Below, piece by piece: positions 6,781-57,125 of a stretch of 64,000 nucleotides of DNA (positions within the stretch are counted from its first letter, which is position 1; every line of letters starts with the position of its first letter). Source of the stretch: Moorena sp. SIO3A5 (lineage in GTDB: Bacteria > Cyanobacteriota > Cyanobacteriia > Cyanobacteriales > Coleofasciculaceae); the NCBI RefSeq assembly GCF_010672205.1, contig NZ_JAAHHD010000019.1, positions 31,963 through 95,962 on the forward strand. The letters are read 5' to 3'. A program made the position numbers and the translations under genes. The notes beneath the pieces were generated by a model. The model was not told the origin of the DNA, made no database searches, and saw only the letters and a program-made list of their open reading frames with translations.

Positions 6781-9700
6781 ATGAGCCAAATCAAATTAGC
6801 TGTGAGTCGCATCAGCCAGTCTCTGGCAGCCGTGTCTTTGTTGGTAGCCCATATTGGTGTCATGCCAACTCAAGCACAGCCTATTCCAGCCAATGATGGC
6901 ACTCAGACCCAAGTCACCTCCGATGGCAATCAATTTGACATTGATGGTGGAACCCCCTCTGGAGATAATCTCTTTCACAGCTTTGAGGAGTTTGGTCTAG
7001 ACCAAGACCAAATTGCTAACTTCCTATCTCAACCGGGTATAAAAAACATTCTGAGTCGGGTCACCAGTCGTAATGCTTCTGTGATCAACGGTCTGATAAA
7101 AATCACAGGGGAGGGCAACCCTAACCTGTTTTTAATGAACCCAGCAGGCATAATTTTTGGTGCTAATAGCCAGCTGGATGTCCCCGGTTCATTCACCGCA
7201 ACTACGGCCACCAGCATTGGCTTTGGTGATGAGAATTGGTTTAATGCCTTTGGTGACAATGACTACTCTACCTTAGACGGTACACCCAGTGCCTTTGCGT
7301 TTGGAACATCCGAGACACCAGGACTAATTTTTAATGAGGGTATAGAAATCCTAGCAGGAAATAACCTGACTTTAATCGGTGGTACTGTCATTAATACCAA
7401 TCAACTGGAGCTTCCAGAAGGAACAATTACTATAGCTGCTGTGCCTGGGGAAAGTTTGGTAAAAATTAGCCAGCAAGGACTGTTGCTGAATTTGGAAGTT
7501 GAAGCCCTAACCTCAGATCCTTCCACAGCAGAACAATCTTTTACACCGCTCTCTTTAGCGGAGCTATTAACCGGGGATGGTGTCAGTCATGCCACAGAAT
7601 TTACGGATAATGGTGATGACACCGTGACCTTGACTGGTTCTGGCATCACTATAGCGCCTGGGGATGTAACTGCTAAGGACATAACAGCACAAAGGGCAAT
7701 CCTGTCTGCCAACAATAACCTGACTGTTTCTGCCAACAATGACCTGACTCTGAGCGCAAGCCAGCTATCTAGCAAGAACACCACCCTGTCTGCCAACAAT
7801 GACCTGACTCTGAGTGCAAGCCAGATATCTAGCGATAACATTACCCTGTCTGCCAACAACAACCTGAATTTGAGCGAAAGCCAGCTATCCAGCACTAAGG
7901 ACTTAACCTTATTAGCAAAAGAGACGGTGCTGATCAGGGACACAACAGATAATTCCTTCCAAGCGGTAGCAGAAGGAAACCTCAAGATTCAGGGGGATGG
8001 GGGCATTGATATCCAAGCACTGAACAATCCCGACACCCGCTTCCAGAGTGGTGGCGACCTGACGTTAGTCAGTGCCACCAATGGCAAGATCTCTACAGAT
8101 GCTCACTTTGCCAGTGGCGGTAATTTCTCAATTGAAAATTTAGCTGGTCAACCACGTGACTTTGTTAGCCTCCAAGACCCAATTATCACTGCTGACGGGG
8201 ATGTTACGTTTGGGGATTACACAGGGTCTTCTCTTAAAGTAGAGTCCACAGGAAATATTGAAGCTGGAAATATCAAAATCACCGCACCAGATACTGGGCT
8301 AGCTGATTTAGACCCAGATTCAGCTTCAGATATTGGCCAATCAGATATTAACACTTTAAAAACTAGTCGTGCTGTGATTTTGAGGGCGGGCTTGAGTAAA
8401 GATGAATTGACCAATCCAGTTACGGACAATTCTGGAGATGCTTCATCTCAAGTTACGGACAATTCTGGAGATGCTTCATCAGGCAGTATCACCATTGGTA
8501 ATATCGACACCAGTGTTAATCCTGTTAATTCTACTAATGATGGTCCTGTAATTGAGGGTAATGCTGGTCCTGTAATCTTATCGGCTCAAGGTGACATTAT
8601 TTTTCGCAGCAATAGTGATGGTACAAATAATGATTTTACCCAAATAAGAACGACAGAAAGAAATGGTAATAATTCTGGTAATGTATTTTTGGAAACCAAA
8701 GAAGGCAGTATTAGGATAGAGGGAGTAGGACTCGATATCAATACTGAGGTTTCAGGCGGTGATAAGGGTGGTAAAGTAACGTTTCAGGTTCCAAATTTAA
8801 ATAATATCGTAGATATTATCGACTCTGGTAAGTTGCAACTCAGGACAAGAGCTCGGGGTAGTGGTGATGCTGGTGATGTAGAGTTTGTTAGTCAGCAAGA
8901 GATCAGCCCAGAGCAGGAACAACAAATAAGAGATCAAATCCAGGAAGATGTGCGGGCTTTCGGTGAAGGGGATATAGGTGATTTGATTTTTAGCCGTTTT
9001 CCCACAGATACTAATACAGAAGAGGAAACAAACCAACAAAACGACACAAACCAACAAGAAGAAACAGACCTTATAGAAGAAACCGACCTTATAGACACTG
9101 GTGAAACCGACCTTATAGACACTGGTGAAACCGACCTTATAGACACTGGTGAAACCGACCTTATAGACACTGGTGAAACCGACCTTATAGACACTGGTGA
9201 AACCGACCCTAAACTTAACCCTGAGCCTAGCTTGGGCGAAGGTAATGAAATTGTTAATGAAACATCCCCTGACACAAGTAAGCCCAACGATGGAGACGGT
9301 GGTAGCCAGCCTCCCGTTTCCCCCTCTGACAAGACTATAAGTGACACGCCAGAACCCTCTAGTTCAGACCCTGGTAGTTCAGACCCTGGTAGTTCAGACC
9401 CTGGTAGTTCAGACCCTGGTAGTTCAGACCCTGGTAGTTCAGACCCTGGTAGTTCAGACCCTGGTAGTTCAGACCCTGGTAGTTCAGACCCTGGTAGTTC
9501 AGAACCTGGAACCCCTACTGCGTCATCTCAATCAAATTCCCCAACTGAGGAGGTCTCACCTGAAAGTGACCCAGTTTATTTAATTGAAGAAGCCTTCACC
9601 AAAGAATATGAATCACACTTTCAGCGACCGTTCAAGACCAAAATCAACACTCAGAATGATGTCCGCAATCGGACTCGGGAGCTTGAGAGGGAGACAGGGC

Positions 9701-21965: not shown

Positions 21966-22181
21966 CTAGTGGGAGCATTTTGCTCCCTTATTTTTTCCCG
22001 TAGAAGAAGCAAAGCTAGAGCTGGAACTTCTACTATAACTCCTGCCAGACTCTCTGGTCACAGTAACCTCTTGACTGGTGTTTACTTGATCACCAGATGC
22101 AAATGCCCTACTTTCGGCTTGGACTACTACCTTTCCATCTGGTGAAACTATCCATTTTCTGATTATCCCGGAGCGAATCAT
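21966..22181 (-). CDS. small conserved protein (paralog of 34432-34566) downstream of the parvulin-like gene
   Basis: N-terminal 44 aa, MIRSGIIRKWIVSPDGKVVVQAESRAFASGDQVNTSQEVTVTRE, is about 60% identical to the peptide at 34432-34566. The position relative to the PPIase-like gene is the same in both loci. Confidence 0.5.
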   Translation of the reverse strand: MIRSGIIRKWIVSPDGKVVVQAESRAFASGDQVNTSQEVTVTRESGRSYSRSSSSSFASSTGKNKGAKCSH

Positions 22182-22378: not shown

Positions 22379-23161
22379 CTACTGACCCAACGCCTCCGCA
22401 GTTTGACTCTCAACCTTATCAACCATAGTGTCACTATGAAGCATATAGTTGAGTTCACGATTGAGCCAATCCTGAAACAGTCTATCCAATATCTCGTCGT
22501 ACCTTTCCGGTGTTAATTCAGCAGGGATAAACCTTTCTACCATCAAGATATGATAACCCTGAGGAGTTTTGACCGGATTGACCACTTGTCCAATAGGTAC
22601 ACCAAAGACAATCGCTGCTATATCTGGACGTAAATTCCAACGGTAAAGCTTCCCTTCAAAACCGCACTTCTGTCGGCGTTGCTCATCAATGTCATAGATA
22701 TGAGCGGCTTGATAAAAGCTAATTTCTTTTTCTTCAATTTGATAGAAGAGTTCTTTGGAAAGTTTCTCGTTAGCTACAATAATTTGATAGAGCAAGATTT
22801 GGTCAAAATCTAGTCGGTTTTGACCAAAAAACTTTTCCACGTCTTTATCAAATAGAGATTTGGATAACTTTTTAGCTAGCAATTGCTGGCGAATTCCGGC
22901 TTCCCAGTCATCGGAAGTAATCATATTATCGGCTAGCCAAGCTAGAGTGTCTGAAGCCTTCTCCAAGCGATTTTGGTGACGGAATTTATCTGCCTCTTCC
23001 TGAATTTCTTCGGCGGTGACGGTTAGGTTTCTTTCGACAGCAGCTCGATTAATGACTTTTTGATACAAAATTTTCTCAGAGACGTCTTTTAGCTGGATTT
23101 CTCGTTTCAGAAACTCAGTAATTTCCTGTGGTTCAAGGGATGCTCTAGAAAGAATAGTCAT
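22379..23161 (-). CDS. parvulin-type peptidyl-prolyl isomerase-like protein (SurA-like N-terminal region plus PpiC domain), no signal peptide
   Basis: PpiC-domain pattern AAHIY...GFEGKLYRW...PVKTPQGYHILMVE. It is 55% identical to the paralog at 34690-35448. Confidence 0.65.
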   Translation of the reverse strand: MTILSRASLEPQEITEFLKREIQLKDVSEKILYQKVINRAAVERNLTVTAEEIQEEADKFRHQNRLEKASDTLAWLADNMITSDDWEAGIRQQLLAKKLSKSLFDKDVEKFFGQNRLDFDQILLYQIIVANEKLSKELFYQIEEKEISFYQAAHIYDIDEQRRQKCGFEGKLYRWNLRPDIAAIVFGVPIGQVVNPVKTPQGYHILMVERFIPAELTPERYDEILDRLFQDWLNRELNYMLHSDTMVDKVESQTAEALGQ

Positions 23162-24734: not shown

Positions 24735-24930
24735 GCCTAGACAATCTTCCTTATTTCGTCCTATTTGCCTTAATTAAAGGGGAAGCATTGGTCTCTAAAT
24801 CTAGAGATGAATTTATCCTAGATAGAAAGGCTTCCCCATTTCATCTTTCTATTTGCCTTAATTAAGGGGGAAGCATTGGTCTCTAAATCTAGAGATGAAT
24901 TTATCCTAGATAGAAAAGCTTCCCCCCCAG
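24735..24930. repeat. two tandem ~100-bp repeats, each containing the hairpin ggggaagc...gcttcccc, immediately 3' of precursor gene P1
   Basis: Read directly; a possible duplicated terminator. Confidence 0.7.
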
Positions 24931-24967: not shown

Positions 24968-25267
24968 TTAGTAGCCGACCGCAGCCACAGACAAAGAAAT
25001 TGAATCAGAGCTGTAATTAGTAGCTTTAGCGTCACTAAAGGTTTCACTAAGACTATTGTAACCATCGGCACTAGCAGTAGCTTCAGCAGTAGCCAGGTTG
25101 CCGCGAAGGCTCACATAAGAGTCAACATACTTGTCAATATCGATATATTCAGTGATATAAATGTCCTTAACATCATAGAAAGTTACACTACGGTATAGGT
25201 CTGAACCACCAACGATATTGGTTTCTTCGTTAACAACTTCGATGTGATTTAGGTCAGAAATATTCAT
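24968..25267 (-). CDS. double-glycine leader precursor protein P1 (leader MNISDLNHIEVVNEETNIVGG plus a 78-aa Tyr/Asp/Ser-rich core)
   Basis: The conserved N-terminal ISDLNH(L/I)E motif is shared with the precursors at 36869-38728, and a GG motif lies ~20 aa from the start. The gene is adjacent to PCAT/HlyD genes on the same strand. Confidence 0.6.
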   Translation of the reverse strand: MNISDLNHIEVVNEETNIVGGSDLYRSVTFYDVKDIYITEYIDIDKYVDSYVSLRGNLATAEATASADGYNSLSETFSDAKATNYSSDSISLSVAAVGY

Positions 25268-25289
25268 GGTTGGTCTGCTCTTTTGTTAG

Positions 25290-25750
25290 TTTTGTTTTAC
25301 TTAACAACTTGGTTGTTGTTAGTTTTATTCTACCGCTTCTTATTCAATTTGTCTCACTTGTCAAGCCAATTTGGCGGAAACTTTAATTAAATTAGTTAGG
25401 TAGCTAAAAACAACTTGGTTGTTGTTATTTTTATCCTACCGCTCTTAATTTAATTTGTCTCACTTGTCAAGCCAATTTGGCGGGAACTTTAGTTCGACCC
25501 TTGATTAAGTTAGGTAGGTAGCTAAGAACAACTTTGGTTTTTGTTGTTGTTATTTTCATCCTACCGCTCTTAGTTGAATTTGTCTCACTTGTCACGCCAA
25601 TTTGGCGGAAACTTTAGCTCGATCCTTGATTAAGTTAGGTAGGTAGCTAACAACAATGGTTTTGTTGTTGTTATTTTTAACCTACCGTTATTAATTTAAT
25701 TTGTCTCACTTGTCAAGCCAATTTGGCGGTAAAGTTTTAGGGAGAGTTTA
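25290..25750. promoter_or_regulatory. five tandem ~118-bp repeats upstream of P1. Each carries a TTGACA-like box and the inverted repeat GCCAATTTGGC preceded by TGTCTCACTTGTCAA
   Basis: Read directly. The same TGTCTC...GCCAATTTGGC motif recurs upstream of P7 (38815-38845) and, with one mismatch, upstream of P4 (37228-37250). Confidence 0.45.
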
Positions 25751-25899
25751 ATGTTACAAATTGTTATGAAAAATGCCCAAGTTATGGAAAAATAACTTGG
25801 GAGTATTAATGCAATTTATGCAGTATCAAAAAATTAATAAAAAACAAAATATAGCAGTCGCCAGGGCAGTTAGGACATCGACATTAGTCTCAAACCTAA

Positions 25900-26450
25900 G
25901 TAAGCGCAAGAGTTTGACTTCTGACTTCTGACTTCTGACTTCTGACTTCTGACTTCTGCTATAAATTCAGCGATTGGGGGACTGTCAGCATTGAGCTATC
26001 AGCCCTGGTGAGGTGTAAGCATTCAGAATTCAGCACTCAGCACTCAGCACTCAGCAGTCAGCCTAATGCTGAAGTAACAGAGATTAAAGCAATGCTTACC
26101 TGTTTTATTCAGATGTAACTCAGCATTATTCCAATGCTTACCTGTTGTCTTGATGCAAAGCGCGAGTGGGGGAAACCACGGCAGTCGCTCATGGGGGAAA
26201 CCACGGCAGTCGCTCATGGGGGAAACCCCCAAGACCGCGCTGCCTCCCCAAGACCGCGCTGCCTCCCCAAGACCGCACTGCCTCCCCAAGACCGTAATGG
26301 TGCGTTTGACCCGTAATTTAATTCGCCACGGGTCGCACCTCTGCATCGCTTATTCAAAAGCATCTCAAGTAGCACCATCTGTAGGGCATTAGCTGATGAC
26401 TGATAGCTGATAGCTGATGGCTGATGGCTGATGGCTGATAGCTGAATACT
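25900..26450. repeat. STRR-like island with GACTTCT x7, CAGCACT x4, a tandem gggggaaaccacggcagtcgctcat / ccccaagaccgcgctgcct repeat block (26150-26300), a partial 41-bp palindromic element (26300-26345), and CTGATGG/CTGATAG heptamers
   Basis: Read directly. Flanked by gtaagcattcag (26020) and gctgaatacttac (26440). Confidence 0.85.
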
Positions 26451-26470: not shown

Positions 26471-26878
26471 CTAGAAACACCTTATATTCCTAGTACTTGA
26501 GTATAATTTTGGCAATTTTTTGTTAAACCACTGTTCTTTAGAGCCCCCTTGAACTAGTTGGCTTCTGCTGTCAAGGGGCTTTGCATAGTCGAGATCTTTA
26601 ATGTTCCTTAAGCACTTCTGAGCATCTTCCCTATCCTGCTTAAGGCTGTCGGTTGTAGCTGGATTGAGTGAGTCCATTTTCTCGTTATCCCGTCGCAATC
26701 GGCAGTAGGTTCGCGACGGTATGTATTCTAAGGGGTTAAGACCCAAATAACGCAGCATCAAAACACAAGCCCAGGAATACTTGCGATCGCGAATTGCTTC
26801 TTCAATCAAACTAATCTTTTCAGGATCTAGGGTTTTGCCCAGTGGGCGATTAGAACGACGAAGCATGGAGTAACTCAT
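26471..26878 (-). CDS. HetP-like protein (paralog 1 of 3)
   Basis: The conserved core [34 protein letters not shown] recurs at 39849-40283 and 46524-46838. From memory it resembles the HetP N-terminal domain ([10 protein letters not shown]...[12 protein letters not shown]), and it sits downstream of a HetC-like PCAT as hetP does in Anabaena. Confidence 0.5.
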   Translation of the reverse strand: MSYSMLRRSNRPLGKTLDPEKISLIEEAIRDRKYSWACVLMLRYLGLNPLEYIPSRTYCRLRRDNEKMDSLNPATTDSLKQDREDAQKCLRNIKDLDYAKPLDSRSQLVQGGSKEQWFNKKLPKLYSSTRNIRCF

Positions 26879-27542: not shown

Positions 27543-29177
27543 CTATAGATTGACACCACCTTTTTGCAGCTGTCGGATCGGATCTAACAAGAAATCCACA
27601 ATCCGACGGCGGCGGATAATGATGTCAGCTTTGGCTGTCTGACCAGGTTTGAATCGGATCATTTGATCGTCTTCTGTAACGTAGTCACGGTTTAGGGAAA
27701 CTTCCACCTCATAAACCGAACCAAGTTGTTGATCAGTTTTGGCATCGGCAGAAAGGGAAGTGACTTTCCCTTTGATGATGCCGTATTCCTGATAGGGATA
27801 GGCATCAAGCTTGATTTGCACCGGCATTCCTTCTTTGATAAAGCCTGCCTCCTGATTAGGTAAACTAGCTGATAACACCAGGGGCGCATCTTGGGGCGCT
27901 ACTTCGGCAATGGTTTGACCGGGTTGAAAGACTTCACCAATATTGGCAACATTGAGGGAGGAAACTACTCCATCCACCGGTGCATAGAGAAACTTTTGTT
28001 TGAGCCTAGCTTTCGCACTAGTTAGCAGATTGCGGTTTTCAGCAATTTTGGCATTTAGTTGAGTCAGTTCGATCTCCAACTGCTGAAGTTTCTGCTTGGT
28101 CTCTAGCTGAGTCCGATGCACTTCCGCTTGCTTCTGAGTTAGACCTGCCTGAAGTCGTTGGATTTCTGCTAAGGTCTGGTTGAGATCGCTGTGAGTCAGA
28201 GTGATCGCGCTGTTGCGATCGCGTATACTCTGCTGGGCTTGATAAATCTGGTCTTGGTTACTGGCTGCTTCTTGCAGTTGGGTTTGGGTAATCACCCGCT
28301 GACTCGCTCGTAGGCTATGTTCTGCTTGAAATACTTGTTCTTTTGAGATTGCCCCTGATGCTAACAGGGGTTTGAGATTCTCTAGGCGTTCCTTAAGGGC
28401 AAATGCATCATCCTGTCGTTGCTGGAGCAGTGCTTGGGTAGTCGCCTTGAGCCGTTTTAGGCGTTCTAGTCTGTCCTGACTGGCGACGTTTGCCTGCTGA
28501 TGTTGGATCAGTTGTTCTCGTAAGGCGGCTACTTTAGTCTGTGCCTGAGCGATAGCGGCCTGTTGTGCGTCAATGTCCGCTTTGGCAATTTGCTGACGGG
28601 TTTGGGCTTCTTGGTGGATGTTTTCAATCAGCCCTTGCATCTGAATTAATTTGATTTGGTCAGCATTGATCAGTTGCTCCAAACGCTCTACTTCAGTAGC
28701 GCCAAGTTCTTTATCCAGTTCCACCAAGACTTGCCCAGCGGTAACCGATTCCCCTTCTTTGACCGCAATCTTGGCGACCTTGCCGGATTGGATCGGATGA
28801 ATTTTATACACTTCTCCTTTTGGCACTAACTTGCCTGTGGCTTTACCCACTTCGTCAATTTGGCCAAAGGTTGCCCAAACCCCACAGACCATACAGAAGG
28901 CGAATCCTCCCAAAAGCAGTCTCTGGGGCAGTACCGATGGTGGCTGATCCAGTAAATTTTGTAGGGCTGTTGACCAGTTTTCAGTGTTGGTAGCCCCTAG
29001 TGATGATGTTGGTGTGACCGGATTTTGAACATGATTAGCTGATTGGGGGAGTGGTGGTGCTGATACCGCTGTCCCCCCATAGATCGATCTAATCTCAGCT
29101 GAGGTTAGATTAGGGTGAGGGGTTTGTCCCTCAGGGAGTCCCTCTCTAGACGGGATAGATGGTTGTGGTTTGTTCAT
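27543..29177 (-). CDS. HlyD-family membrane-fusion/secretion adaptor protein
   Basis: N-terminal cytoplasmic tail, a single TM segment (LLLGGFAFCMVCGVWATFG), a long coiled-coil region, and the C-terminal beta domain typical of HlyD. Confidence 0.85.
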   Translation of the reverse strand: MNKPQPSIPSREGLPEGQTPHPNLTSAEIRSIYGGTAVSAPPLPQSANHVQNPVTPTSSLGATNTENWSTALQNLLDQPPSVLPQRLLLGGFAFCMVCGVWATFGQIDEVGKATGKLVPKGEVYKIHPIQSGKVAKIAVKEGESVTAGQVLVELDKELGATEVERLEQLINADQIKLIQMQGLIENIHQEAQTRQQIAKADIDAQQAAIAQAQTKVAALREQLIQHQQANVASQDRLERLKRLKATTQALLQQRQDDAFALKERLENLKPLLASGAISKEQVFQAEHSLRASQRVITQTQLQEAASNQDQIYQAQQSIRDRNSAITLTHSDLNQTLAEIQRLQAGLTQKQAEVHRTQLETKQKLQQLEIELTQLNAKIAENRNLLTSAKARLKQKFLYAPVDGVVSSLNVANIGEVFQPGQTIAEVAPQDAPLVLSASLPNQEAGFIKEGMPVQIKLDAYPYQEYGIIKGKVTSLSADAKTDQQLGSVYEVEVSLNRDYVTEDDQMIRFKPGQTAKADIIIRRRRIVDFLLDPIRQLQKGGVNL

Positions 29178-29347: not shown

Positions 29348-32300
29348 TTAAAGATCCAGCTGCTGCTGGGCTAGGTGGTAGTACAGACCTTTCTCAGCCA
29401 TGAGTTCGGAGTGGGTACCGCGCTCTGCGATCAGACCTTGGTCGAGGACCAGTATAGAGTCGGCATTGCGCACCGTAGAAAGACGGTGGGCAATGATGAA
29501 GGTAGTGCGATCGCGACTAATGCGAGCTAAATTTTGTTGAAAACGTCGCTCGGATTCTGTATCTAGGGAGCTAGTCGCTTCATCGAGAATCAGAATCTTG
29601 GGGTTACCCAGCAAGGCTCGGGCGATCGCAATCCGTTGCCGTTGTCCCCCAGACAGGTTAGACCCTCGCTCCCCAACCTTGGTGTTGTATCCCAGGGGCA
29701 GGTTTTGAATAAACACATGAGCTTCAGCCAATTTGGCAACTTCTACCCCTTGTTCGAGGCTATACTCAGGTTTGTATAAGGTGATGTTCTCTAAAATCGT
29801 CCCTGAAAACAAAAAGCATTCTTGAGGTACCACACCTAATTGAGAGCGCAAAGACTGGGGAGAAACATGTCGGATGTCGTGGCTATCAATCAAAATACGG
29901 CCTGTAGTTGGGTGATAGAGTCCTTGGAGCAGCTTGACCAAGGTACTTTTGCCCGAGCCACTGCGTCCGACAATGGCTATGGTCTTTCCAGGGGCAACCT
30001 CGAAGGAAATGTTTTGAAGGGTGTATTGTTCATCATCCTCACTATAGCGAAAGCTGACATTGTCAAACTGGACATGCCCCGCGATCGCAGGCAATGGCAT
30101 CAGGGGTTTTTGGGTATTCTCTTCTGGCTGGGTGGTCAAGACATCATCGAGCCGTTCCACCGATACCAAGATTTCCTGGAACTCATCCCAAAGTCCCACC
30201 AAAGACAAAATCGGGCTAATCACCCGACCAATGAGCATATTGAATGCCACAAATTGACCAATCGTGAGCTGTTCCTGAATTACCAGACTTGCCCCGAACC
30301 ACAGTAAAGCCGTGCCGCTGAGGTTATTAATCAACCCACTGACTGACCCTAAGCCGTTGGCCAAGTTCTGTCCTTTGAATACCATATTCAACTGACCCGT
30401 GAGGCGGTCTTCCCAGCGCCAGCGCACCTCTTGTTCAGAGGCTGCTGCTTTGACAGTTGCTACTCCCGACATCATTTCTACTAACAGGGAGTTTTGTGCT
30501 GCTGTTTCTTTAAAGATTTCCCTGGACACTTGGCGTAGAAATGGACTGGCAACTATGGTCAAAATCGCAATCGGTACAATCGTTGCCAGGACCAGCAAGG
30601 TTAGGTGCCAGTTGTAGTAGAGCATCAGCCCCACATAGACAAACATCATTACCACATCCAGCCAAGTAGCAATGGCTTGCTGAGTCAGGAACGCCTGAAT
30701 TTTCCCAGTTTCCTGGACTCGGGTCAGGATGTCCCCCACCTGGCGGGATTCAAAAAACTTCAGGGGTAGTGTGAGGGTATGCTTAATAAAACCACTGACA
30801 AAGGTAAGACTGAGTCGATTGGAAAAGTAATCCAGCAGGTAGCGTCTGGTGACACTCAAGCCTATGCTCCAAAGGCCAAAGATGACTAGACCAATTGCAA
30901 ACACATTGAGGGTAACAACACTTTTGTTAACCACCACCCGATCCAAAATGATTTGGGTAAACAGGGGGGTAATCAGACCAAAAACCTGGAGCAGTAGGGA
31001 AGCTAGGATAATTTGCAACAGGACTATGCGATGGGGCCATAGCAATCCCCAAAAGCGATTCAGAGAAATCTTTTGATTGGGAGTCCCTGCTAGCTGGGGA
31101 GTAGGATTCAACAGCAGCGCATATCCTGTCCAACCCTCTAGAAATTGTTGTCGAGAAAGCGTCCGCTTTCCCACAGCTGGATCCGCAACAAGTACCTTCT
31201 CCCCTTTGACCGAATAGACAACTATATAATGATCACCTTGCCAGTGAGCAATCCAGGGGTTACTCCGATCCGCTAGGCGAGCTAAAGACGCTCTAACTGG
31301 AGTAGCTTGAAATCCCAAGGTTTCTGATGCTCTGGCTAACCCTTTCAGGGATGACCCAGAACGCCCCACCCCTGCCAGATTCCGTAGGGAATTCAAGCTA
31401 AATCGTTTGCCCCAGTAGCGTCCAATCATTGCCAAGCAAGCAGCGCCACAATCTGAAGAGGATTGCTGTTCAATGAAGGGATAGCGTTGCCACAACCCCT
31501 GAATAAAAGGTCGCTTCGTCGGTACGGGAAATGGTATCAGTTTAGACTCAGCCTGGGTCGAGTTACTTTGTGTTTCAGCATTTCCATTGGTAGGGAGGTT
31601 GGATGGAATTAGCGGTACTCTGTGACCGGGCTGAGTACGGACTGGGTGGACTATGGCGCTAGTCGCCCCTGATTTCTGGTGTCCATTTTCAGAGGTTTGA
31701 CCCGTCTGTGGACTCAACTTTGCCAGCACCGGTGCCATCATTTGGGCAGTTTCCCAATGTTCCTTTGGTAGATGGGTTACCCATAAATCGCTTTGAGCAA
31801 TCCAATCTTCCGGCACTGGCTGAGGATAGCCCCAACTTTCGCCCCTTGCAATAGTTAGTGGGCAATTCTGTTGAACTCCGCCCCTTTCAATCTGACCACT
31901 ACGTAGCCAGTAACGACCAACTTGGCCAGACTTAACTAAGGACTCCCCAGCGGAAATCCGTGTGTCTACCAGGTAGGGCAACAATTGCTGTAGAGTGATG
32001 CTGTCAAGCGATCGCAATGCTGTTAAGGTCTTGAAGAAAATCAAGCGTTGCCGGTGCTGAGCTTGTTGCTGTAGGTGTTCGAGCCACTCCGGTAGCTGTT
32101 CTAACCAAGGTTGCAGTTCAGCTAAGGACATCCGAGCAATCTGTCCTGAACTCGCTGCGATCGCTTGGTAAGGATAAGATAGGTTGCACAACAGTTCCTC
32201 AGCCCCAAAGGTTGCCCCCTCTTCAAGAACCTGTACGGATACGTCCCGCTGTTTTTCACCATCAAAGCTTAGCAGCCGCACCCGCCCGCAACAGACCACG

Positions 32301-32560
32301 TAAAAATACTTATTTGGTTCATTTTGAACATAATTTTGGCTTAACTCCCGTCTAGGATAGGGTATAATTTCATCACCTAGATCAAAGTTATGAATTTGGA
32401 AGGATTGACTAAATTCTGGTAATAGTGTATTTGATAGGGTCTTATCCAACCAGTTCGCGATTAGGTGTTCAATAACCTCGGAAGATTTCTGGGTCGGGTA
32501 TTGGCCAAGGGAATCTGGTGGTTGCCCTGATTTTTCTAAACCGACCGTTTTCTGATGCAT
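29348..32560 (-). CDS. HetC-like peptidase-containing ABC transporter (PCAT) with two N-terminal cyclic-nucleotide-binding-like domains, a C39 peptidase, ABC TMD and NBD
   Basis: C39 catalytic-Cys context SSDCGAACLAMIGRYWGKRF. The Walker A motif GRSGSGKST, the ABC signature LSGGQRQR and the Walker B motif ILILDEATS are present. N-terminal cNMP-binding-like repeats are present. Confidence 0.85.
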   Translation of the reverse strand: MHQKTVGLEKSGQPPDSLGQYPTQKSSEVIEHLIANWLDKTLSNTLLPEFSQSFQIHNFDLGDEIIPYPRRELSQNYVQNEPNKYFYVVCCGRVRLLSFDGEKQRDVSVQVLEEGATFGAEELLCNLSYPYQAIAASSGQIARMSLAELQPWLEQLPEWLEHLQQQAQHRQRLIFFKTLTALRSLDSITLQQLLPYLVDTRISAGESLVKSGQVGRYWLRSGQIERGGVQQNCPLTIARGESWGYPQPVPEDWIAQSDLWVTHLPKEHWETAQMMAPVLAKLSPQTGQTSENGHQKSGATSAIVHPVRTQPGHRVPLIPSNLPTNGNAETQSNSTQAESKLIPFPVPTKRPFIQGLWQRYPFIEQQSSSDCGAACLAMIGRYWGKRFSLNSLRNLAGVGRSGSSLKGLARASETLGFQATPVRASLARLADRSNPWIAHWQGDHYIVVYSVKGEKVLVADPAVGKRTLSRQQFLEGWTGYALLLNPTPQLAGTPNQKISLNRFWGLLWPHRIVLLQIILASLLLQVFGLITPLFTQIILDRVVVNKSVVTLNVFAIGLVIFGLWSIGLSVTRRYLLDYFSNRLSLTFVSGFIKHTLTLPLKFFESRQVGDILTRVQETGKIQAFLTQQAIATWLDVVMMFVYVGLMLYYNWHLTLLVLATIVPIAILTIVASPFLRQVSREIFKETAAQNSLLVEMMSGVATVKAAASEQEVRWRWEDRLTGQLNMVFKGQNLANGLGSVSGLINNLSGTALLWFGASLVIQEQLTIGQFVAFNMLIGRVISPILSLVGLWDEFQEILVSVERLDDVLTTQPEENTQKPLMPLPAIAGHVQFDNVSFRYSEDDEQYTLQNISFEVAPGKTIAIVGRSGSGKSTLVKLLQGLYHPTTGRILIDSHDIRHVSPQSLRSQLGVVPQECFLFSGTILENITLYKPEYSLEQGVEVAKLAEAHVFIQNLPLGYNTKVGERGSNLSGGQRQRIAIARALLGNPKILILDEATSSLDTESERRFQQNLARISRDRTTFIIAHRLSTVRNADSILVLDQGLIAERGTHSELMAEKGLYYHLAQQQLDL

Positions 32561-34431: not shown

Positions 34432-34566
34432 CTAGTCTCTTTTGACAGTAACCTCTTGAATAATGGTTGCTTCATCCCCAGAGGCAGTTGCTGTACTTTC
34501 GGCTTGGACTACAACCGTACCATCTGCTGAAACTATCCATTTTCTGATTGTCTGGGAACGTCTCAT
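34432..34566 (-). CDS. small conserved peptide (44 aa), paralog of 21966-22181
   Basis: MRRSQTIRKWIVSADGTVVVQAESTATASGDEATIIQEVTVKRD. It is not in the >=60-aa ORF track and was found by aligning the two loci. Confidence 0.45.
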   Translation of the reverse strand: MRRSQTIRKWIVSADGTVVVQAESTATASGDEATIIQEVTVKRD

Positions 34567-34689: not shown

Positions 34690-35448
34690 TTATTCCCCAG
34701 TATTGATGGTACTAATTTCACTATGGATCATATAGTTAACTTCACTATTGAGCCACTCTTGAAACATACTCTGTAAAATTTCTTTAGACTTTTCTTCGGT
34801 TAATTCAGCTGGAATAAATTCTTCAACTAAGAAAAGATGATATCCTTGTTCGGTTTGCAGGGGATGAGTCACTTCTCCTGGCTGAACACTAAAGATAAGG
34901 GCAGCTATCTCAGGCTTAAAACTCCAACGAGGCAACTTTCCTTCATAGCCACACCGTCGCTGCCTTTCTGGGTCTATATCATAGAAATGAGCAGCTTCAT
35001 AAAAACTGATTTCTCCTTCCTCAATCTGATAGAAAAGCTCCTGAGCAATTTCCTCAGAATCCACCAGAATTTGATAAACCAAAACTTGCTCAAAGTCCAG
35101 TCGATTTTGAGCAAAGCTTTTTTCCACATCTTTATAAAATAAGGACTCAGCAAGCTTTTGGGCAAGCAAGCGATCGCTAATTCCCGCTTCCCAATCCTCT
35201 GCTGTCACCATCTGATCTGCCAGCCAGGCCAATGTTTCTGCTGCCTTTTCCAAACGATTGGCATAACGGATCTCATCCGCCTGAGCTTGCACGTCTTCTG
35301 GTGTGACTGTTATCCCTCTTTCTTGAGCCGCTTTATTGATAACTCGTTGATACAAAACTTTTTGACAGATGCCCTTCAGATGCATCTCCTTTTTCAAGGA
35401 GTACATAATTTCCTCTGGAGTCACCGATGCTTTGGAAAGGTCAACCAT
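34690..35448 (-). CDS. parvulin-type PPIase-like protein (paralog 2)
   Basis: Same architecture as 22379-23161; GYHLFLVEEF parvulin motif. Confidence 0.65.
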   Translation of the reverse strand: MVDLSKASVTPEEIMYSLKKEMHLKGICQKVLYQRVINKAAQERGITVTPEDVQAQADEIRYANRLEKAAETLAWLADQMVTAEDWEAGISDRLLAQKLAESLFYKDVEKSFAQNRLDFEQVLVYQILVDSEEIAQELFYQIEEGEISFYEAAHFYDIDPERQRRCGYEGKLPRWSFKPEIAALIFSVQPGEVTHPLQTEQGYHLFLVEEFIPAELTEEKSKEILQSMFQEWLNSEVNYMIHSEISTINTGE

Positions 35449-35694
35449 TACACCCGATTATGAACTATAACTGGAACTACTTACAGTCTTGGTCAGAGTC
35501 AGCTGAGTTAACTGTCTGACTCTTATCATCATACAAAAAGCAATTCCTAAATTTTGCCAATTTGCCAAATTGAGGGCGGAGTATTTGCCAGCAAAAATCA
35601 AAGTTGAGACTTATCCCTCAATCAAAACACCTCGCCCCTCAATCCCCGTTTTGAAGCCAGCACACAGAAACTAGATTTTATTAAGCTGATAGCT

Positions 35695-36275: not shown

Positions 36276-36563
36276 TTATCCAATCAAACGATAAATCCCA
36301 AAGGGATCATGGACAGAATAACCCCAGTAATGACGATCCCTAGCCCTAGCCTCAGCTTTTGCCCTAGCTTCAGAAAAGAACTCGTCTACATGGATAAAGC
36401 TTTCTACGGAAGTATCGGTATGCTGAGCTAACGCATCGGCCTGAGCATTAGTGGCACCAATGCCAGGACCAGCGAAGGCTTCAGCAGTAGTAAAAACAAA
36501 ACCACCTAAAATAGGGTGGTCTGTTGCCTGTAGCTCAAAATATTCTAATTGAGCAATTTTCAT
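36276..36563 (-). CDS. double-glycine leader precursor protein P3 (leader MKIAQLEYFELQATDHPILGG)
   Basis: GG at residues 20-21 with Leu/Glu/Ile spacing approximating the class-II leader consensus. The core has the GATNAQADALAQHTDTS segment similar to the other cores. Confidence 0.45.
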   Translation of the reverse strand: MKIAQLEYFELQATDHPILGGFVFTTAEAFAGPGIGATNAQADALAQHTDTSVESFIHVDEFFSEARAKAEARARDRHYWGYSVHDPFGIYRLIG

Positions 36564-37156: not shown

Positions 37157-37444
37157 TATTTATTTCTCTCCTTTTTGTTTTTTAATAAAACTGCTTGTTT
37201 GACACTTCAATTAAACTATCAAAGTTCAAAATGTTTGTCTCGCTAATTTGGCAATTAACCTATTGAGTTCCGGTTTGATATAACTACTGATACTTTAGTA
37301 TTTTGAAGTCATCAAAATGAATGAATTACACCTAAAAATGAGTGCAATAATCTTGATATAGAATTGAATTTAATGCATTATATTAGGATATGAATACACC
37401 CAGGTTTACAAATTACTTAATCACAAAAAGTTCCTGATTAAGTA

Positions 37445-37777: not shown

Positions 37778-37981
37778 TGATTTTCTCCTTTTTTATTGTT
37801 AATAATGGGCAAACCCATCTAAATTATAGAAACGTTACTCAGAAAAGATTTCAAACTTAATAAGTTAAAATACTTATCATATGAATCTCATATCCAGTAG
37901 GCATTTCAAAATAAGATGCGTTTACCCTGAATAATGAATCGAGGTTTACAAATTACTTAATTAGTAACTTGTCCTGATTAA

Positions 37982-38317
37982 TTAATGACGGCTGATTCCA
38001 GAGAAGCCAATACCTACGGACTTGGAACCAGTTACTCCACCTTGCTCAATAGTGATGAAGACGCTTTCTTGCTTAGTAGCAACGTTATTACCTGCATCGC
38101 TAGAACCTTCAGATGTAGTACCACCTGAAGCGGTAATACCATTAATGTCTACGCTAGAGGTAATGCTGGTATCGAAAACTTCAGTTTCGGTGATGGTGCT
38201 GGTGGTGTTGAAAACGCTGGTGACATTGTTGTTGAATGTGATTCCAGCAATAGTAGTACCACCTTGAACTTGGCTAGCCTCAACGGATTCTAGATGATTT
38301 AAGTCAGAAATAAGCAT
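37982..38317 (-). CDS. double-glycine leader precursor protein P6
   Basis: MLISDLNHLESVEASQVQGG leader; paralog of P5 and P7. Confidence 0.65.
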   Translation of the reverse strand: MLISDLNHLESVEASQVQGGTTIAGITFNNNVTSVFNTTSTITETEVFDTSITSSVDINGITASGGTTSEGSSDAGNNVATKQESVFITIEQGGVTGSKSVGIGFSGISRH

Positions 38318-38395
38318 TGATTTTCTCCTTGTTGGTTGTTGATGATGAATCGAGGTTTAGAAACTAATTAATCAGAAACTTTTCGTGATTAATTA

Positions 38396-38728
38396 CTAAC
38401 GGCTGATTCCAGAGAAGCCAAGACCTACAGACTTGGAACCAGTTACGCCACCTTGCTCAATAGTGATGAAGACGCTTTCTTGCTTAGTAGCAACGTTATT
38501 ACCTTGATCGCTAGAACCTTCAGATGTAGTACCACCTGAAGCGGTAATACCATTAATGTCTACGCTAGAAGTAATGCTGGTATTGAAAACTTCAGTTTCG
38601 GTGATGGTGCTGGTGGTGTTGAAAACGCTGGTGACATTGTTGTCGAATTGGATTCCAGCAATAGTAGTACCACCTTGAACTTGGCTAGCCTCAACGGATT
38701 CTAGATGGTTTAAGTCAGAAATAAGCAT
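38396..38728 (-). CDS. double-glycine leader precursor protein P7
   Basis: MLISDLNHLESVEASQVQGG leader; paralog of P5 and P6. Confidence 0.65.
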   Translation of the reverse strand: MLISDLNHLESVEASQVQGGTTIAGIQFDNNVTSVFNTTSTITETEVFNTSITSSVDINGITASGGTTSEGSSDQGNNVATKQESVFITIEQGGVTGSKSVGLGFSGISR

Positions 38729-38854
38729 TGATTTTCTCCTTCTTTGTTGTTGATTTTATTTCTGTGGAGCAGCTTTGTTTTAGCTGTTGATATAACTATA
38801 TCCATATTCCCCTAGGCATGTCTCGCCAATTTGGCTTCAAGCTTTTATTTTTTG

Positions 38855-39215
38855 AAAATCACTGGATTTACTAAAAGGATGTAGTCAGCAGTAACCAATT
38901 CTGGATTAGTTCAAATAGATTGGTAATATTTCTGGGGTTTTAGTCAAGTAAATTCTTAGGAATAAACTGGTCATTATATCTAATATAAAAAAAAATGAAC
39001 GCCACTTTGGCTTGAGATTGATGCTTGACTCCTCCCACAACTAAAGAGTGACTAGTAACCGATTCTGAATTAGTTCAAAGAGATGGGTAAGGTTGATGGG
39101 GTTTTAGTGAAGTAAATTATTAGTAATGAACCGGTTATTATATCAAATCTAATTAAAAATATGAACGCCACTTTGGCTTGAGATTGATGGTTGAATCCTC
39201 CCACAACTAAAGTAA
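38855..39215. repeat. two tandem ~180-bp repeats upstream of P7, each containing gaacgccactttggcttgagattgatg. The GCCAATTTGGC inverted repeat lies just downstream at 38815-38845
   Basis: Read directly. Confidence 0.75.
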
Positions 39216-39848: not shown

Positions 39849-40283
39849 TCACCACAGGGAAACCAAACAGTCTTGCCGTAAATAATCGGTTAACTTCTTG
39901 AGGATGGATTCCTCTTCTTCCAGTTCAGTGATTAAGCACTGTTCTTGATCGCCACCGTGGACCTGTGAAGTTTTCTTGCCAAGGGTCTCTACATAAGCCA
40001 GATCTTTGATCTGGCTCAAACGCTGCCGTGCATTCAAGACTTTATTGCTATTGGTCATCATACTAGCTTGCTTCTGTAAGATCATGTCCCGGTTTTGTTT
40101 GAGCAAGCGGCTGTAGGTTCTAGAAGGCATGTAGTCTAGGGGGTTATGGCCTGCCAAGCGTAGCATTAACACACAAGCCCAAGAATATTTGCCATCAAGG
40201 ATGGCTTCCTCGATCTCGCTAAACTTATCAATATCCATCATTTTGTCGAGCTTGGTATTGGCAGAAGGAATACGATAGGTCAT
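39849..40283 (-). CDS. HetP-like protein (paralog 2)
   Basis: [34 protein letters not shown] core. Same position downstream of HlyD/PCAT as paralog 1. Confidence 0.5.
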
Positions 40284-40455: not shown

Positions 40456-42057
40456 CTATAGATCGATGCCGCTTTTTTGCAGTTGTCGCATCGGATCCAA
40501 TAAGAAATCGATAATCCGACGGCGGCGGATGATGATGTCAGCATTGGCGGTTTGACCAGCCTTAAACCGGATGATTTCATCCTCTTCAATCACATAGTCA
40601 CGGTCGAGGGACACTTTCACCTTATAGACTGAACCCATTACTTGATCGGCTTTAGCATCGGAAGAGATGGAAATCACCGTGCCTTTGATGATGCCGTAAT
40701 CCTGATAGGGATAGGCATCAAATTTCACTTGCACCGCCATTCCTTCGTTAATAAACCCTGCCTCGCGAGTAGGCAAACTTGCGGATAGCACTAAGGGGGC
40801 ACCTTGAGGAGCGATTTCGGCGATGCTACGTCCCGGTTGCACGACTTCACCAGCATTACCAATGTTGAGGGAAGATATTATCCCATCCACTGGCGCTTTG
40901 AGAAACTTCTGTTTGAGCCTGGTTTTAGCAGTAGTAACCAGGGTTTCATTTTCAGAAATTCTAGCTTTGATTTGGGTCAGTTCCACTTCCAACTGTTGAA
41001 TTTTCTGCTGTGCTTCCAGGCGAGTGGTGCGTCCCGTTGCTTGCCGATGCTCTAATTCTGCCTCTAGTCGCTTAATTTCTGCTAAAGTTTGTTGTAGCTC
41101 ACCTCGGCTTTGGCTAGTCGCCGCTTCGCGATCGCGTATACTTTGCTGAGCTTGAAAGATCTGTTCGCGAGTACTCAAACCCTCTTGCAGTTTGCTTTCG
41201 GTAACAGCACTTTGGCTAGCACGAAAGCTTTGTTCTGCTTGAAATACCTGTTCTTTCGAGATTGCTCCTTCTGCCAACAGAGGCTTAAGGTTATCGAGTC
41301 GTTCCTTGAGAGCCACTACATTAGCCCGCCGTTGCTGGAGCAGTTCTTGGGCTGTCGCCTGCACCAGCTTCATCCGTTGTAATCGTTCGCGATTAGCAGC
41401 TTTAGCTAACTGATGTTGAATGATTTGTTGTCTAATTGCCGATGCACTAGCTTGTGCTCGTGCGATCGAAGCTTGTTGTGCTTGAACTTCTGCTTGGGTA
41501 ATCTGCTCACGAGTTTCTACTTCTAGACGGGTTCTTTCAAGCAGTCCTTGCATCTGAACTAACCTAATCCGGTCTGCATTAAGAACTTTCTCTAAACGTT
41601 CTACTTCCTGAGTGGCAAGCTCTGTATCCAGTTCCACCAAGACTTCCCCAGCTTTAACCGCTTGCCCTTCTTTGACCTTAATACTAGCAATCTTGCCTGG
41701 CTCAATCGGGTCAACTTTATAAACGTCGCCTTTTGGCACTAAGCTTCCATGAGCTTTACCGACTTCATCAATCTGCCCAAACGTTGCCCAAGCCACAAAT
41801 ATCGTACAGAAGCTTAATCCACCCAACATCAAGAGCCGGGGAAGGTTCGCCGGAGGCTGGTCGAGGGTAGTTTGTATCGAGGTTGACCATTTGGACGTAC
41901 TAGGAGCATTGGCAGTATTGCTTCCTACCTCTGTGCTGGGTGAGCCTGGCTCTTGGTCATAATCAGGTCTCAGGCGACCTGATGGCATTAAAACGACGTT
42001 ACCCTGACGACTCGTAGCCGCCTCAGGTGGGGAGTTGATTGGTTTTGCTTGTGTCAT
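40456..42057 (-). CDS. HlyD-family secretion adaptor protein (paralog 2)
   Basis: About 70% identical to 27543-29177 over the TM, coiled-coil and beta domains. Confidence 0.85.
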   Translation of the reverse strand: MTQAKPINSPPEAATSRQGNVVLMPSGRLRPDYDQEPGSPSTEVGSNTANAPSTSKWSTSIQTTLDQPPANLPRLLMLGGLSFCTIFVAWATFGQIDEVGKAHGSLVPKGDVYKVDPIEPGKIASIKVKEGQAVKAGEVLVELDTELATQEVERLEKVLNADRIRLVQMQGLLERTRLEVETREQITQAEVQAQQASIARAQASASAIRQQIIQHQLAKAANRERLQRMKLVQATAQELLQQRRANVVALKERLDNLKPLLAEGAISKEQVFQAEQSFRASQSAVTESKLQEGLSTREQIFQAQQSIRDREAATSQSRGELQQTLAEIKRLEAELEHRQATGRTTRLEAQQKIQQLEVELTQIKARISENETLVTTAKTRLKQKFLKAPVDGIISSLNIGNAGEVVQPGRSIAEIAPQGAPLVLSASLPTREAGFINEGMAVQVKFDAYPYQDYGIIKGTVISISSDAKADQVMGSVYKVKVSLDRDYVIEEDEIIRFKAGQTANADIIIRRRRIIDFLLDPMRQLQKSGIDL

Positions 42058-42559: not shown

Positions 42560-42860
42560 ATTTCATCTGAGTATGTTGCTAAATTGGCAGATTTTTGGCA
42601 GCTTTTTACAAAGCTTGACATAGTGATAGCTAGCTTCAAATTTCATTAATTATTAGTCATTAGTCATTAGTCCTTTTCACATGACTGTGTTGCCAAATTG
42701 GCAAATTTTTACATAGTTTGATATAGTCATAGGTAGCTTCAAATTTTCTTAGTCATTAGTCCTTTGTGACTAACCAGGGTCTATGGGGATTTACAAATGA
42801 CTAATGACTAAATAACTAATAACTAATAACTAATGACTAATGAGCACTTGTTAACGATCT
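42560..42860. repeat. two ~100-bp tandem repeats plus ttagtcattagtcatt / aactaat heptamer arrays in an ~800-bp spacer between HlyD-2 and PCAT-2
   Basis: Read directly. The equivalent spacer in locus 1 is only ~170 bp. Confidence 0.75.
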
Positions 42861-56585: not shown

Positions 56586-56670
56586 ATTTGCCAGGAGAGG
56601 TGGCAGAGTGGTCGATTGCACTCGACTTGAAATCGAGCGAGCCGAAAGGCTCCGGGAGTTCGAATCTCCC
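56586..56670 (+). tRNA. tRNA-Ser (anticodon UGA), type II with a long variable arm
   Basis: 85-nt cloverleaf: acceptor GGAGAGG/CCTCTCC, anticodon stem CTCGA/TCGAG with loop CTTGAAA, variable arm CGAGCCGAAAGGCTCCG, T-loop TTCGAAT. CCA is not encoded. Confidence 0.85.
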
Positions 56671-56759
56671 CCTCTCCGTTTTATAGATTATATTTGTTCA
56701 AAGTTGAGACTTGAGGGTTGAGGGTCAACCCTCAAATTTTTTCTTTCTTGATGCAAAGG

Positions 56760-57125
56760 GCGAGTCAGAAAGTAGGTTTAAGTTGATGTAGGGTGGGCAG
56801 TGCATCAGACAGATAATGAAGCTTGCCAAGGGGGTTGGTAGGCACTGCCCACCCTAGGATTCTTGATGCAGTAGCCAATGGGGAAGGTAGGTTTAAGTTG
56901 ATGTAGGGTGGGCAGTGCATCAGACAGATAATGAAGCTTGCCAAGGGGGTTGGTAGGCACTGCCCACCCTAGGATTCTTGATGCAGTAGCCAATGGGGAA
57001 AGTAGGTTTAAGTTGATGTAGGGTGGGCAGTGCATCAGACAGATAATGAAGCTTGCCAAGGGGGTTGGTAGGCACTGCCCACCCTAGGATTCTACGATTC
57101 ATGACAATGGTGCAAGATCTCAGTT
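56760..57125. repeat. three tandem ~117-bp copies of the GGGTGGGCA-hairpin MITE-like element plus the conserved tail, immediately 3' of tRNA-Ser
   Basis: Read directly. The spurious ORFs 56805-57059 and 56920-57102 lie inside it. Confidence 0.85.

Follow-up and report, generated by a model that had tools for sequence, protein, structure and literature searches.

Putative tandem promoter modules with a widespread cyanobacterial palindrome upstream of a double-glycine precursor gene in Moorena

The tandem array upstream of the precursor gene P1 in Moorena sp. SIO3A5 is probably the product of tandem amplification of a complete, regulator-dependent promoter module, in which a palindrome would be the binding site of a dimeric factor dedicated to the surrounding gene cluster. 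Comparison across the phylum indicates that this palindrome is the local form of a cyanobacteria-wide 13-bp element, TGCCAA-W-TTGGCA. Properly contextualized copies in the window (the whole 64-kb stretch of DNA analyzed) are confined to two loci.

Two peptide-export loci and the array upstream of P1

The ORF listing places two paralogous loci, A and B, in the window, both on the minus strand. Locus A has the order ABC exporter, HlyD, HetP-like gene, repeat array, P1, PPIase, and small ORF:

29348-32560, minus strand: ABC exporter gene (cNMP-binding, C39 peptidase, and ABC domains)
27543-29177, minus strand: HlyD-family gene
26471-26878, minus strand: HetP-family gene, with an internal leader-like IKDLDY...GG; candidate regulator
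25776-25801, minus strand: terminator-like hairpin and T-run separating the HetP-like gene from the array (terminator scan)
25303-25737, minus strand: tandem array of four predicted promoter modules upstream of P1 (TRF and unit alignment across Moorena strains)
25717-25727, minus strand: palindrome of distal unit 4; -10 box TAGGTT at 25679-25684
25596-25606, minus strand: palindrome of unit 3, then GTGACA; -10 box TAGGAT at 25558-25563
25471-25481, minus strand: palindrome of unit 2; -10 box TAGGAT at 25433-25438
25365-25375, minus strand: palindrome GCCAAATTGGC of the proximal unit, then TTGACAAGT, GAGACA at 25350-25355, 17 nt, and TAGAAT at 25327-25332
25268-25326, minus strand: predicted P1 5' leader, with an AACAAC-CAA-GTTGTT hairpin near a start inferred from the -10 box
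24968-25267, minus strand: precursor P1 (99 aa; double-glycine leader, MNISDLNHIEVVNEETNIVGG...)
22379-23161, minus strand: PPIase gene
21966-22181, minus strand: small ORF

Locus B has the order ABC, HlyD, HetP-like gene, two tandem units, P7-P5, P4, a GG-leader ORF, PPIase, and small ORF:

42862-46089, minus strand: ABC gene
42561-42772, minus strand: duplicated unit of about 103-114 bp upstream of the HlyD gene, with no clear -10 box
40456-42057, minus strand: HlyD gene
39849-40283, minus strand: HetP-family gene
38883-39212, minus strand: two tandem 164-166 bp units, each with the palindrome variant GCCAAAGTGGC
38825-38835, minus strand: single canonical palindrome GCCAAATTGGC upstream of P7, then GAGACA, with TATAGT (38795-38800) at 24 nt
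37242-37252, minus strand: one-mismatch palindrome GCCAAATTAGC upstream of P4, then GAGACA, with TAGTTT at 23 nt
36276-36563, minus strand: further GG-leader ORF, beyond P4
35556-35566, minus strand: degenerate site GGCAAATTGGC upstream of the PPIase gene, then 22 nt and TATGAT (35528-35533)
34690-35448, minus strand: PPIase gene
34432-34566, minus strand: small ORF

Both loci are group I/II double-glycine "bacteriocin-like" clusters in the sense of Wang et al. (2011; PMC3140520), an assignment based on an exporter with cNMP-binding and C39 domains, HlyD, a SurA-like PPIase, GG precursors, and an adjacent HetP-like gene; the match extends to the long type of C39 ABC exporter with its N-terminal cNMP-binding domain. 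HetP-like genes adjoin such clusters, and their products carry an internal KIxDLxYLE-x10-GG motif (Wang et al. 2011; PMC3140520). The HetP-like protein of locus A (26471-26878) shares 100% identity with a protein named [quoted passage not shown], and the two HetP-like proteins of the window match HetP_family (NF037966) with E = 5e-21 and 5e-27. The PPIase proteins match PPIase families. The Moorena loci L002-L005 encode proteins identical to those of the window; there Pfam assigns the HetP domain to the HetP-like protein and gives the exporter cNMP_binding, Peptidase_C39, ABC_membrane, and ABC_tran domains. The precursors have no family match in NCBIfam or Pfam.

The preliminary description reported five tandem repeats of about 118 bp upstream of P1. 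The array is real (TRF: consensus period 125, 3.7 copies, 83-86% matches), and it contains four palindrome units; the exact 11-mer GCCAATTTGGC occurs at 25365, 25471, 25596, and 25717, at spacings of 106, 125, and 121 bp. What was counted as a fifth unit amounts to a brief stretch of partial similarity within the 5' leader beside the P1 start codon (25268-25302). A 28-mer quoted for every unit is exact in three; the unit at 25596 has ...GTCACGCC... instead. Allowing up to one mismatch, GCCAATTTGGC occurs 21 times in the window against 1.5 expected, a count reached by none of 100 shuffles. Beyond the array, exact copies are at 38825, 42692, and 29727, and copies with one mismatch are at 37242, 39001, 39167, 42578, and several further positions. 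The spacings of 106, 121, and 125 bp were also considered for helical phasing, and they give no constant helix face. Short tandem repeats are abundant throughout the window (TRF). The terminator-like hairpin at 25776-25801 suggests that the array is probably shielded from transcription of the upstream HetP-like gene.

The related sites in locus B had been noticed in part. The 11-mer is present upstream of P7 (38825-38835) as reported, in a flanking context that differs from the array: GTCTC abuts the palindrome at 38825 and 37242, and in the array 9 bp (ACTTGTCAA/C) lie in between. The TATAGT at 38795-38800 is 66 nt before P7. The one-mismatch copy upstream of P4 (GCTAATTTGGC, 37242-37252) is as described, and so are the two tandem repeats with the variant GCCACTTTGGC, except that their period is 164-166 bp and not 180. 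In these two units the variant GCCAAAGTGGC lies at 39001-39011 and 39167-39177, with a perfect TATAAT 22-24 nt further on (38973-38978 and 39137-39142); we interpret them as putative orphan promoter modules. Copies at 42692, 42578, 35556-35566, and 29727 had been missed in the earlier reading. The unit at 42561-42772 contains GCCAATTTGGC (42692-42702, minus strand) and GCCAATTTAGC (42578-42588); HlyD-upstream sites in other genera, unlike this one, have a clear -10 box. Homologs of the site at 35556 precede PPIase genes in three other loci (L050, L053, and L072). Two matches within conserved coding sequence are treated as coding coincidences and were rejected as regulatory sites: 29727, inside the ABC gene (encoding A-K-L-A), and 18249, inside a hemE-like gene (A-K-K-A).

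Anatomy of the module and the cyanobacteria-wide element

Read in gene direction, a unit has the form ...AAAGTTTCC GCCAAATTGGC [T/G]TGACAAGT GAGACA N17 TAGGAT AAAAATAACAACAACCAAGTTGTT..., with the parts in the order palindrome, 9-bp insert, -35-like GAGACA, 17 nt, -10 box, and start of a leader hairpin. Its own predicted promoter (palindrome, GAGACA-N17, -10 box) is present in every array unit. A promoter scan found, within the array, a single promoter of consensus type on the transcribed strand, GAGACA-17-TAGAAT in the proximal unit; GAGACA itself matches the -35 hexamer at four of six positions. The distal boxes (TAGGAT, TAGGTT) are weaker than the proximal TAGAAT, and in the Moorena strains, where distal units have TAGGAT, the best -10 box (TAGAAT or TATAAT) is always in the proximal unit. 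A TTGACA that abuts the palindrome had earlier been pointed out; it was rejected as the -35 element, because it has no usable -10 box at 16-18 nt, where only TAAGAG, lacking the final T, is found. The scan selects GAGACA-17-TAGAAT, and the geometry common to other lineages likewise favors GAGACA-N17-TAGGAT/TAGAAT.

For comparison beyond Moorena, we assembled 68 loci encoding HetP relatives, with one genome per species, from taxa including Symploca, Aliterella, Stenomitos, Pseudanabaena, Coleofasciculus, Dactylococcopsis, Thermosynechococcaceae, Leptolyngbya, and a Gloeobacterales genome; removal of the four Moorena locus-A copies leaves a set of 64. In the 573 kb of these 64 HetP-linked loci, GCCA-N3-TGGC occurs 115 times, against 8.8 +/- 3.1 in dinucleotide shuffles. 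The distance from the motif to a downstream TAnnnT is 23 nt in 69 sites, 24 nt in 24, and 22 nt in 16, against a background of about 6 per position, so that 109 of 230 oriented sites have TAnnnT at 22-24 nt. Alignment of the sites yields the consensus cTGCCAAWTTGGCAAcay, in which 85% of sites have T at -1 and 74% have A at +11; the sequence upstream of the element is A/T-rich, and the -10 box is TATAnT. No -35-like hexamer is present in about 65 aligned promoters from other genera, in which the palindrome is followed by AACAY, which does not resemble TTGACA. With the -10 hexamer placed at -12 to -7, the center of the palindrome falls at about -41, the start being deduced from the -10 box alone.

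The first ORF downstream is in most cases a peptide beginning M-[IL]-I-S-D-L-N-[HY]-L-E, with GG at about residue 20 and, in the HetP-linked loci, a start codon 50-77 nt past the -10 box; the remaining sites precede HlyD (eight loci), PPIase (three loci), or HetP-like genes. Viewed from the genes, the exact core precedes 48 of 70 distinct GG-leader ORFs, at -160 to -30 from the start codon, those lacking it being mostly second or third genes of tandem sets, and 42 of the 64 HetP-selected loci have at least one motif promoter. An independent scan of metagenomes by DNA pattern alone (TGCCAAWWTGGCAAC-N20-TATANT) gave 109 matches on 96 contigs. Of these, 104 could be evaluated, and 67 have a GG-leader ORF no more than 350 nt away, the median distance from the -10 box being 62 nt. 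The scan selected 18 metagenome loci of 9 kb or more; nine of these have a HetP-like gene, as do, by hand count, nine of the 11 that also have a GG-leader or cluster gene.

The fixed phase relative to the -10 box and the presence before genes of the export clusters suggest that the palindrome is the site of a dimeric, cluster-dedicated factor. A palindrome held in fixed phase and shared by all regulated transcription units of a cluster, at promoters lacking a -35 box, is the classic signature of such a factor in contact with RNA polymerase, and this part of the reading is well supported. The original proposal that the palindrome is a putative regulatory protein-binding site tied to precursor genes is thus supported by its conservation across orders, its -10 spacing, and its position before cluster genes. 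The factor would most likely be an activator in a class-II-like position, which is favored by the lack of a -35 box at these promoters. Cyanobacterial promoters often have no recognizable -35 box, however, so this lack is weak evidence for activation over repression.

In class II promoters the sites of CRP, FNR, and NtcA are centered at -41.5 and LuxR/TraR boxes at about -42.5. The canonical sites described here resemble them in that the palindrome lies at a fixed distance upstream of a good -10 box, near -41, and replaces a -35 element that is weak or absent. The sequence is of another kind: TGCCAA-W-TTGGCA fits none of the consensus sites GTA-N8-TAC, TGTGA-N6-TCACA, and TTGAT-N4-ATCAA, its half-site centers are only about 8 bp apart, and the clusters share no conserved gene of the CRP or LuxR family. 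The P1 array departs further, with the palindrome 9 bp upstream of the class II position. Its palindromes are separated from the -10 box by 32 nt instead of 23, a shift explained by the 9-bp insert, and the array units (25303-25737) therefore fall outside the class II geometry of a site at about -41. A center near -50 is awkward for class II activation, and the array units may work unlike the canonical sites.

A second conserved feature helps to fix this geometry. Among 266 distinct promoters, 27 have a CAAC-loop-GTTG hairpin starting 5-12 nt past the -10 box, where 0.75 would be expected, and the Moorena AACAAC-CAA-GTTGTT, 7-10 nt after TAGGAT, is the same element. Its position is evidence that TAGGAT/TAGAAT serves as the -10 box in the array units, which in turn places the array palindrome 9 bp upstream of the canonical position, with its center near -50. 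The variable loop length favors a hairpin at the 5' end of the RNA over a protein-binding site; the hairpin is weak.

Copy number and recurrent multiplication

We compared contigs encoding the identical HetP-like protein together with loci of other Moorena genomes. Variation in copy number among related strains, a comparison proposed in the preliminary description, was found: the array has four units in the window, L002, and M. bouillonii PNG (L009), five in L003, L004, L005, L008, and L011, and at least five in L007. Draft contigs L001, L007, and L010 break inside the array or carry an N-run within it. A multi-copy array is retained in every Moorena genome sampled, and strains with identical flanking genes have strongly differing sets of precursors. 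When 35 distinct units are aligned, the palindrome, KTGACAAGTGAGACAAAT, CGGTAGGAT, and TAACAACAAC hardly change, and the upstream flank, spacer, and loop are variable; in the Moorena strains the functional boxes are kept in nearly all of about 45 units amid variable neighboring positions. Gene conversion among units is a possible mimic of purifying selection. Palindromes are damaged in three units (GCCCAATTTGC in L003; GCCAAATTGTC in L004/L005), which indicates that the constraint does not extend to every copy. A single copy of the module, with its 9-bp insert, also stands before a second precursor gene (at 8235 in L003 and at 5154 in L005).

Multiplied modules are found elsewhere as well. Units of the locus-B type (164-166 bp) number two in the window, four in L012, and three in L051, and comparison of these copies identifies conserved blocks in the transcribed part of the unit. 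A 97-bp unit occurs three times in L120, and a 91-bp unit two or three times in L109. In nine metagenome contigs (L080, L087, L090, L134, L138, L142, L143, L147, and L158), three motif promoters follow one another at spacings of 90 and 79 bp, and in L142 the triplet directly precedes a GG-leader gene. Outside the core boxes, unit sequences differ by eye between lineages; such lineage-specific sequences suggest that the duplications are independent, and multiplication of the promoter module looks to have arisen separately in several lineages. In all of these lineages the duplication begins upstream of the palindrome, takes in the -10 box, and reaches as far as a short hairpin. An operator iterated in front of one cargo gene, as proposed earlier, describes the repetition of the palindrome correctly and understates the repeated segment, which is the whole predicted promoter module and not an operator alone. 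Such multiplication would place several start points and factor sites before the first cargo gene; extra modules may raise its expression, sharpen the response, or titrate the factor, and unit number would drift by unequal recombination. Cooperative or titratable control, as suggested earlier, is thus one possibility among several.

Rival readings, candidate regulator, and significance

Amplification of an activator-dependent module was weighed against four other readings. The palindrome could be a repressor operator over the -35 position, in which case the array would add operators and so tighten repression or titrate the repressor. The site does lie immediately upstream of or overlapping the -35 position, the Moorena GAGACA is fair, correctly spaced, and could fire without an activator, and the 9-bp displacement in the array suits repression or looping better than class II activation. 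The roughly 65 promoters of other genera that lack any -35-like hexamer argue against an operator, and so does a -10 distance held to within 1 bp, which is the mark of contact between factor and polymerase rather than of simple occlusion; we regard repression as unlikely, although a serious competitor. Rather less probable is that the proximal unit alone matters and that replication slippage or unequal crossing-over in a repeat-rich genome generated the others, which would then be neutral. The strain-variable copy number, the decayed palindromes, the many short tandem repeats in the window, and the restriction of the best -10 box (TAGAAT/TATAAT) to the proximal unit are all consistent with neutrality, which accounts poorly for the preservation of the boxes in nearly all units amid variable neighbors, for the multi-copy state of every sampled Moorena genome, and for arrays of unrelated unit sequence in at least four other contexts.

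Cyanobacterial direct repeats in which each copy has a promoter are known from the NsiR1 array of heterocyst-forming cyanobacteria (Nostocales); in Nostoc PCC 7120 the gene is repeated in 12 tandem copies, every one of which has its own DIF1 promoter and encodes an RNA of about 60 nt (PMC9045159). Each Moorena unit, whose promoter is predicted, might by analogy be a small-RNA gene, the array then yielding a regulatory RNA instead of driving P1. The interior array units have a full predicted promoter and no ORF, and the conserved blocks in the transcribed part of the locus-B units point the same way. NsiR1 encodes a defined RNA, however, and the Moorena units have neither a terminator nor a stable RNA and end directly at a protein-coding gene. 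The scan found no terminator-like site on the minus strand inside the array units, the repeat units have no match among Rfam families, and their transcripts fold weakly (z = -1.1 to -2.6, with A/U-rich stems); on these grounds an RNA-level role was rejected, and with the module also present in single copy directly before precursor genes in L003 and L005, a small-RNA array is very improbable. Least credible of all is a site-specific recombination site that shuffles precursor cassettes between strains. It would suit the strong variation in precursor content between Moorena strains with identical flanking genes and the position of a palindrome before each cassette; the fixed phasing to the -10 box, the presence of the element before HlyD, PPIase, and HetP-like genes, and the lack of a conserved recombinase in the neighborhood (ORF clustering) speak against it so strongly that we give it almost no weight.

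Clustering of all ORFs from the 64 loci identified HetP-like (60), HlyD (50), ABC (46), and PPIase (33) proteins as the conserved families, and no gene for a classical transcription factor is conserved among these loci. The HetP-like protein is the only conserved candidate regulator, a reasonable but unproven one to which we assign a rather low probability. The motif co-occurs with HetP-like genes and also with HlyD and ABC genes, so the association does not discriminate among them. AlphaFold2 predicts the N-domain of the HetP-like protein (about residues 15-71) as a confident three-helix bundle with pLDDT above 90, the remainder being disordered. Comparison of this domain with PDB folds by Foldseek gave E values of at least 5 and no relevant match, and its resemblance to helix-turn-helix folds is weak; by sequence, nothing relevant to a helix-turn-helix was found in HetP with Pfam (E <= 5) or a PDB profile search (E <= 10). 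Among 73 homologs, the invariant N-domain residues fall in helices 2 and 3 (K-Y-S-W-A-C-V-L...P-x-R-T-Y-x-R-L), and in the leader-like motif the GG and I-x-D-L-x-Y-x-E show little or no variation.

Fusions of HetC and HetP both localize near the heterocyst poles, loss of HetC alters transcription of several genes, and HetP might be a substrate of HetC (PMC10986499). We found no biochemical function for HetP in the accessible literature. It is conceivable, although we think it doubtful, that the HetP N-domain binds TGCCAA-W-TTGGCA and drives the cluster promoters, with its activity coupled to the exporter through the I-K-D-L-x-Y...GG motif and the C39 domain; the C39 peptidase domain would bind or cleave the internal leader-like motif of the HetP-like protein.

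In Gram-positive class II bacteriocin operons, ComE/PlnC-type direct repeats are bound by LytTR response regulators in a peptide-pheromone circuit. Those promoters likewise have a dedicated cis-element common to precursor and transport operons; here the element is an inverted repeat, in contrast, and the clusters encode no kinase or response regulator. For the cyanobacterial clusters, the word "promoter" is absent from Wang et al. (2011), who describe neither a shared palindrome nor promoter arrays (PMC3140520). A full-text literature search found no cyanobacterial paper with the motif strings and nothing relevant on palindromic promoters of double-glycine genes. The predicted regulon motif thus appears to be undescribed, and the recurrent amplification of what look to be whole promoter modules is likewise new.

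Cyanobacterial peptide-export clusters are widespread and experimentally neglected, and they now have a shared, sharply positioned cis-element, which can be used for finding precursor genes and for delimiting the regulon. Repeated, apparently independent amplification of the module, with copy number varying at the level of strains, may act as a natural rheostat of expression. Binding of the HetP N-domain to the 13-mer has become a concrete question that is cheap to address experimentally. If it does bind, the arrangement would constitute a transporter-coupled transcription switch, and the heterocyst-commitment protein HetP would gain a concrete molecular activity.

Palindromes and hairpins beyond the array

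A copy of the palindrome (the GCCAA-W-TTGGC-type promoter element) lies at 29727-29737, within the coding sequence of the ABC exporter in the window. There it codes for the conserved A-K-L-A of ...VEVAKLAEAH..., and the equivalent position of the ABC gene also has a palindrome in nine comparison loci (L008-L010, L015, L016, L023, L024, L027, and L059); this internal copy is probably a side effect of conserved codons. Antisense to the ABC gene, a TAnnnT hexamer stands exactly 23 nt past the palindrome in several genera. An internal antisense promoter is possible, though codon conservation is the preferred reading.

Some Nostocales (Richelia, Anabaena, and Trichormus) carry GCCAA(T/A/C)TTGGC followed after 22 nt by TATCCT or TATTCT. 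These sites are located approximately 410-580 nt upstream of where hetP itself is matched, and the site is missing from several Nostoc loci.

Sites upstream of hetP in Nostocales comparison loci
L038, position 4594
L042, position 4545
L045, position 4423
L048, position 4545

A short hairpin with a CAAC...GTTG stem and a variable loop begins 5-12 nt past the -10 box in 27 of 266 promoters (approximately 10%; 0.75 promoters expected), and it may represent a 5'-terminal mRNA hairpin.

25268-25326, CAAC...GTTG hairpin in the window (also present at many other loci)

Repeats and turnover of precursor genes

Just 3' of the stop codon of P1, the double-glycine (GG)-leader precursor gene downstream of the array of four promoter modules, an 88-bp unit is repeated 1.9 times (24761-24925; 97% matches). 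Each copy contains GGGGAAGC...GCTTCCCC plus an inner inverted repeat (TCTCTA..TAGAGA), and the units may be duplicated terminators. Short tandem repeats are densely packed at 25915-26445, in the stretch that separates the array from the HetP-like gene: the heptamers TGACTTC (x6), AGCACTC (x6), and TAGCTGA (x8), together with 2.4 copies of a 25-mer and 3.6 copies of a 19-mer. Runs of similar heptamers are found all over the window. Two near-perfect tandem repeats occur at 9079-9208 (24-mer x5.4, 100%) and 9360-9509 (15-mer x10, 99%). A further repeat follows a tRNA gene, with a 115-bp unit present 2.8 times at 99% identity and containing a long inverted repeat, GGGTGGGCAGTGC...GCACTGCCCACCC.

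56594-56678, tRNA gene, ahead of the tandem repeat (whole feature 56594-57093)

At 37934-38754, a 411-bp unit is present twice (94% identity), so that an entire precursor gene is duplicated (P6/P7); P5 is a third paralog. Because neither P6 nor P5 has a palindrome of its own, the promoter at 38825 probably drives their co-transcription. Despite identical ABC, HlyD, and HetP-like proteins, the window and other Moorena loci (L002-L005) differ in the number (one to four) and kind of precursor genes that lie from the array to the PPIase gene, which marks the Moorena cargo region, as judged from these comparisons, as one of fast turnover.

HetP-like proteins and a conserved small protein

The HetP-like proteins (26471-26878 and 39849-40283) contain an internal leader-like motif, I-K-D-L-x-Y...GG, as already pointed out by Wang (2011; PMC3140520). 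Its GG is invariant in an alignment of 73 homologs, and the motif resembles the leader of the precursors themselves; together these features suggest that the HetP-like protein is recognized by the C39 peptidase domain.

Directly after the PPIase gene, each of the two paralogous export clusters encodes a small protein.

21966-22181, minus strand, small-protein gene of locus A
34432-34566, minus strand, small-protein gene of locus B

The protein, for which no family match was obtained, has a basic N-terminus and a KKRIISPDGK..A.A.S...S.D-like motif; ..Q.VTV comes next, and the tail is rich in serine. It is kept across genera (L023, L027, L041, L044, L050, L053, L069, L071, and L072; phmmer, E down to 3e-8) and is an additional conserved member of these export clusters.
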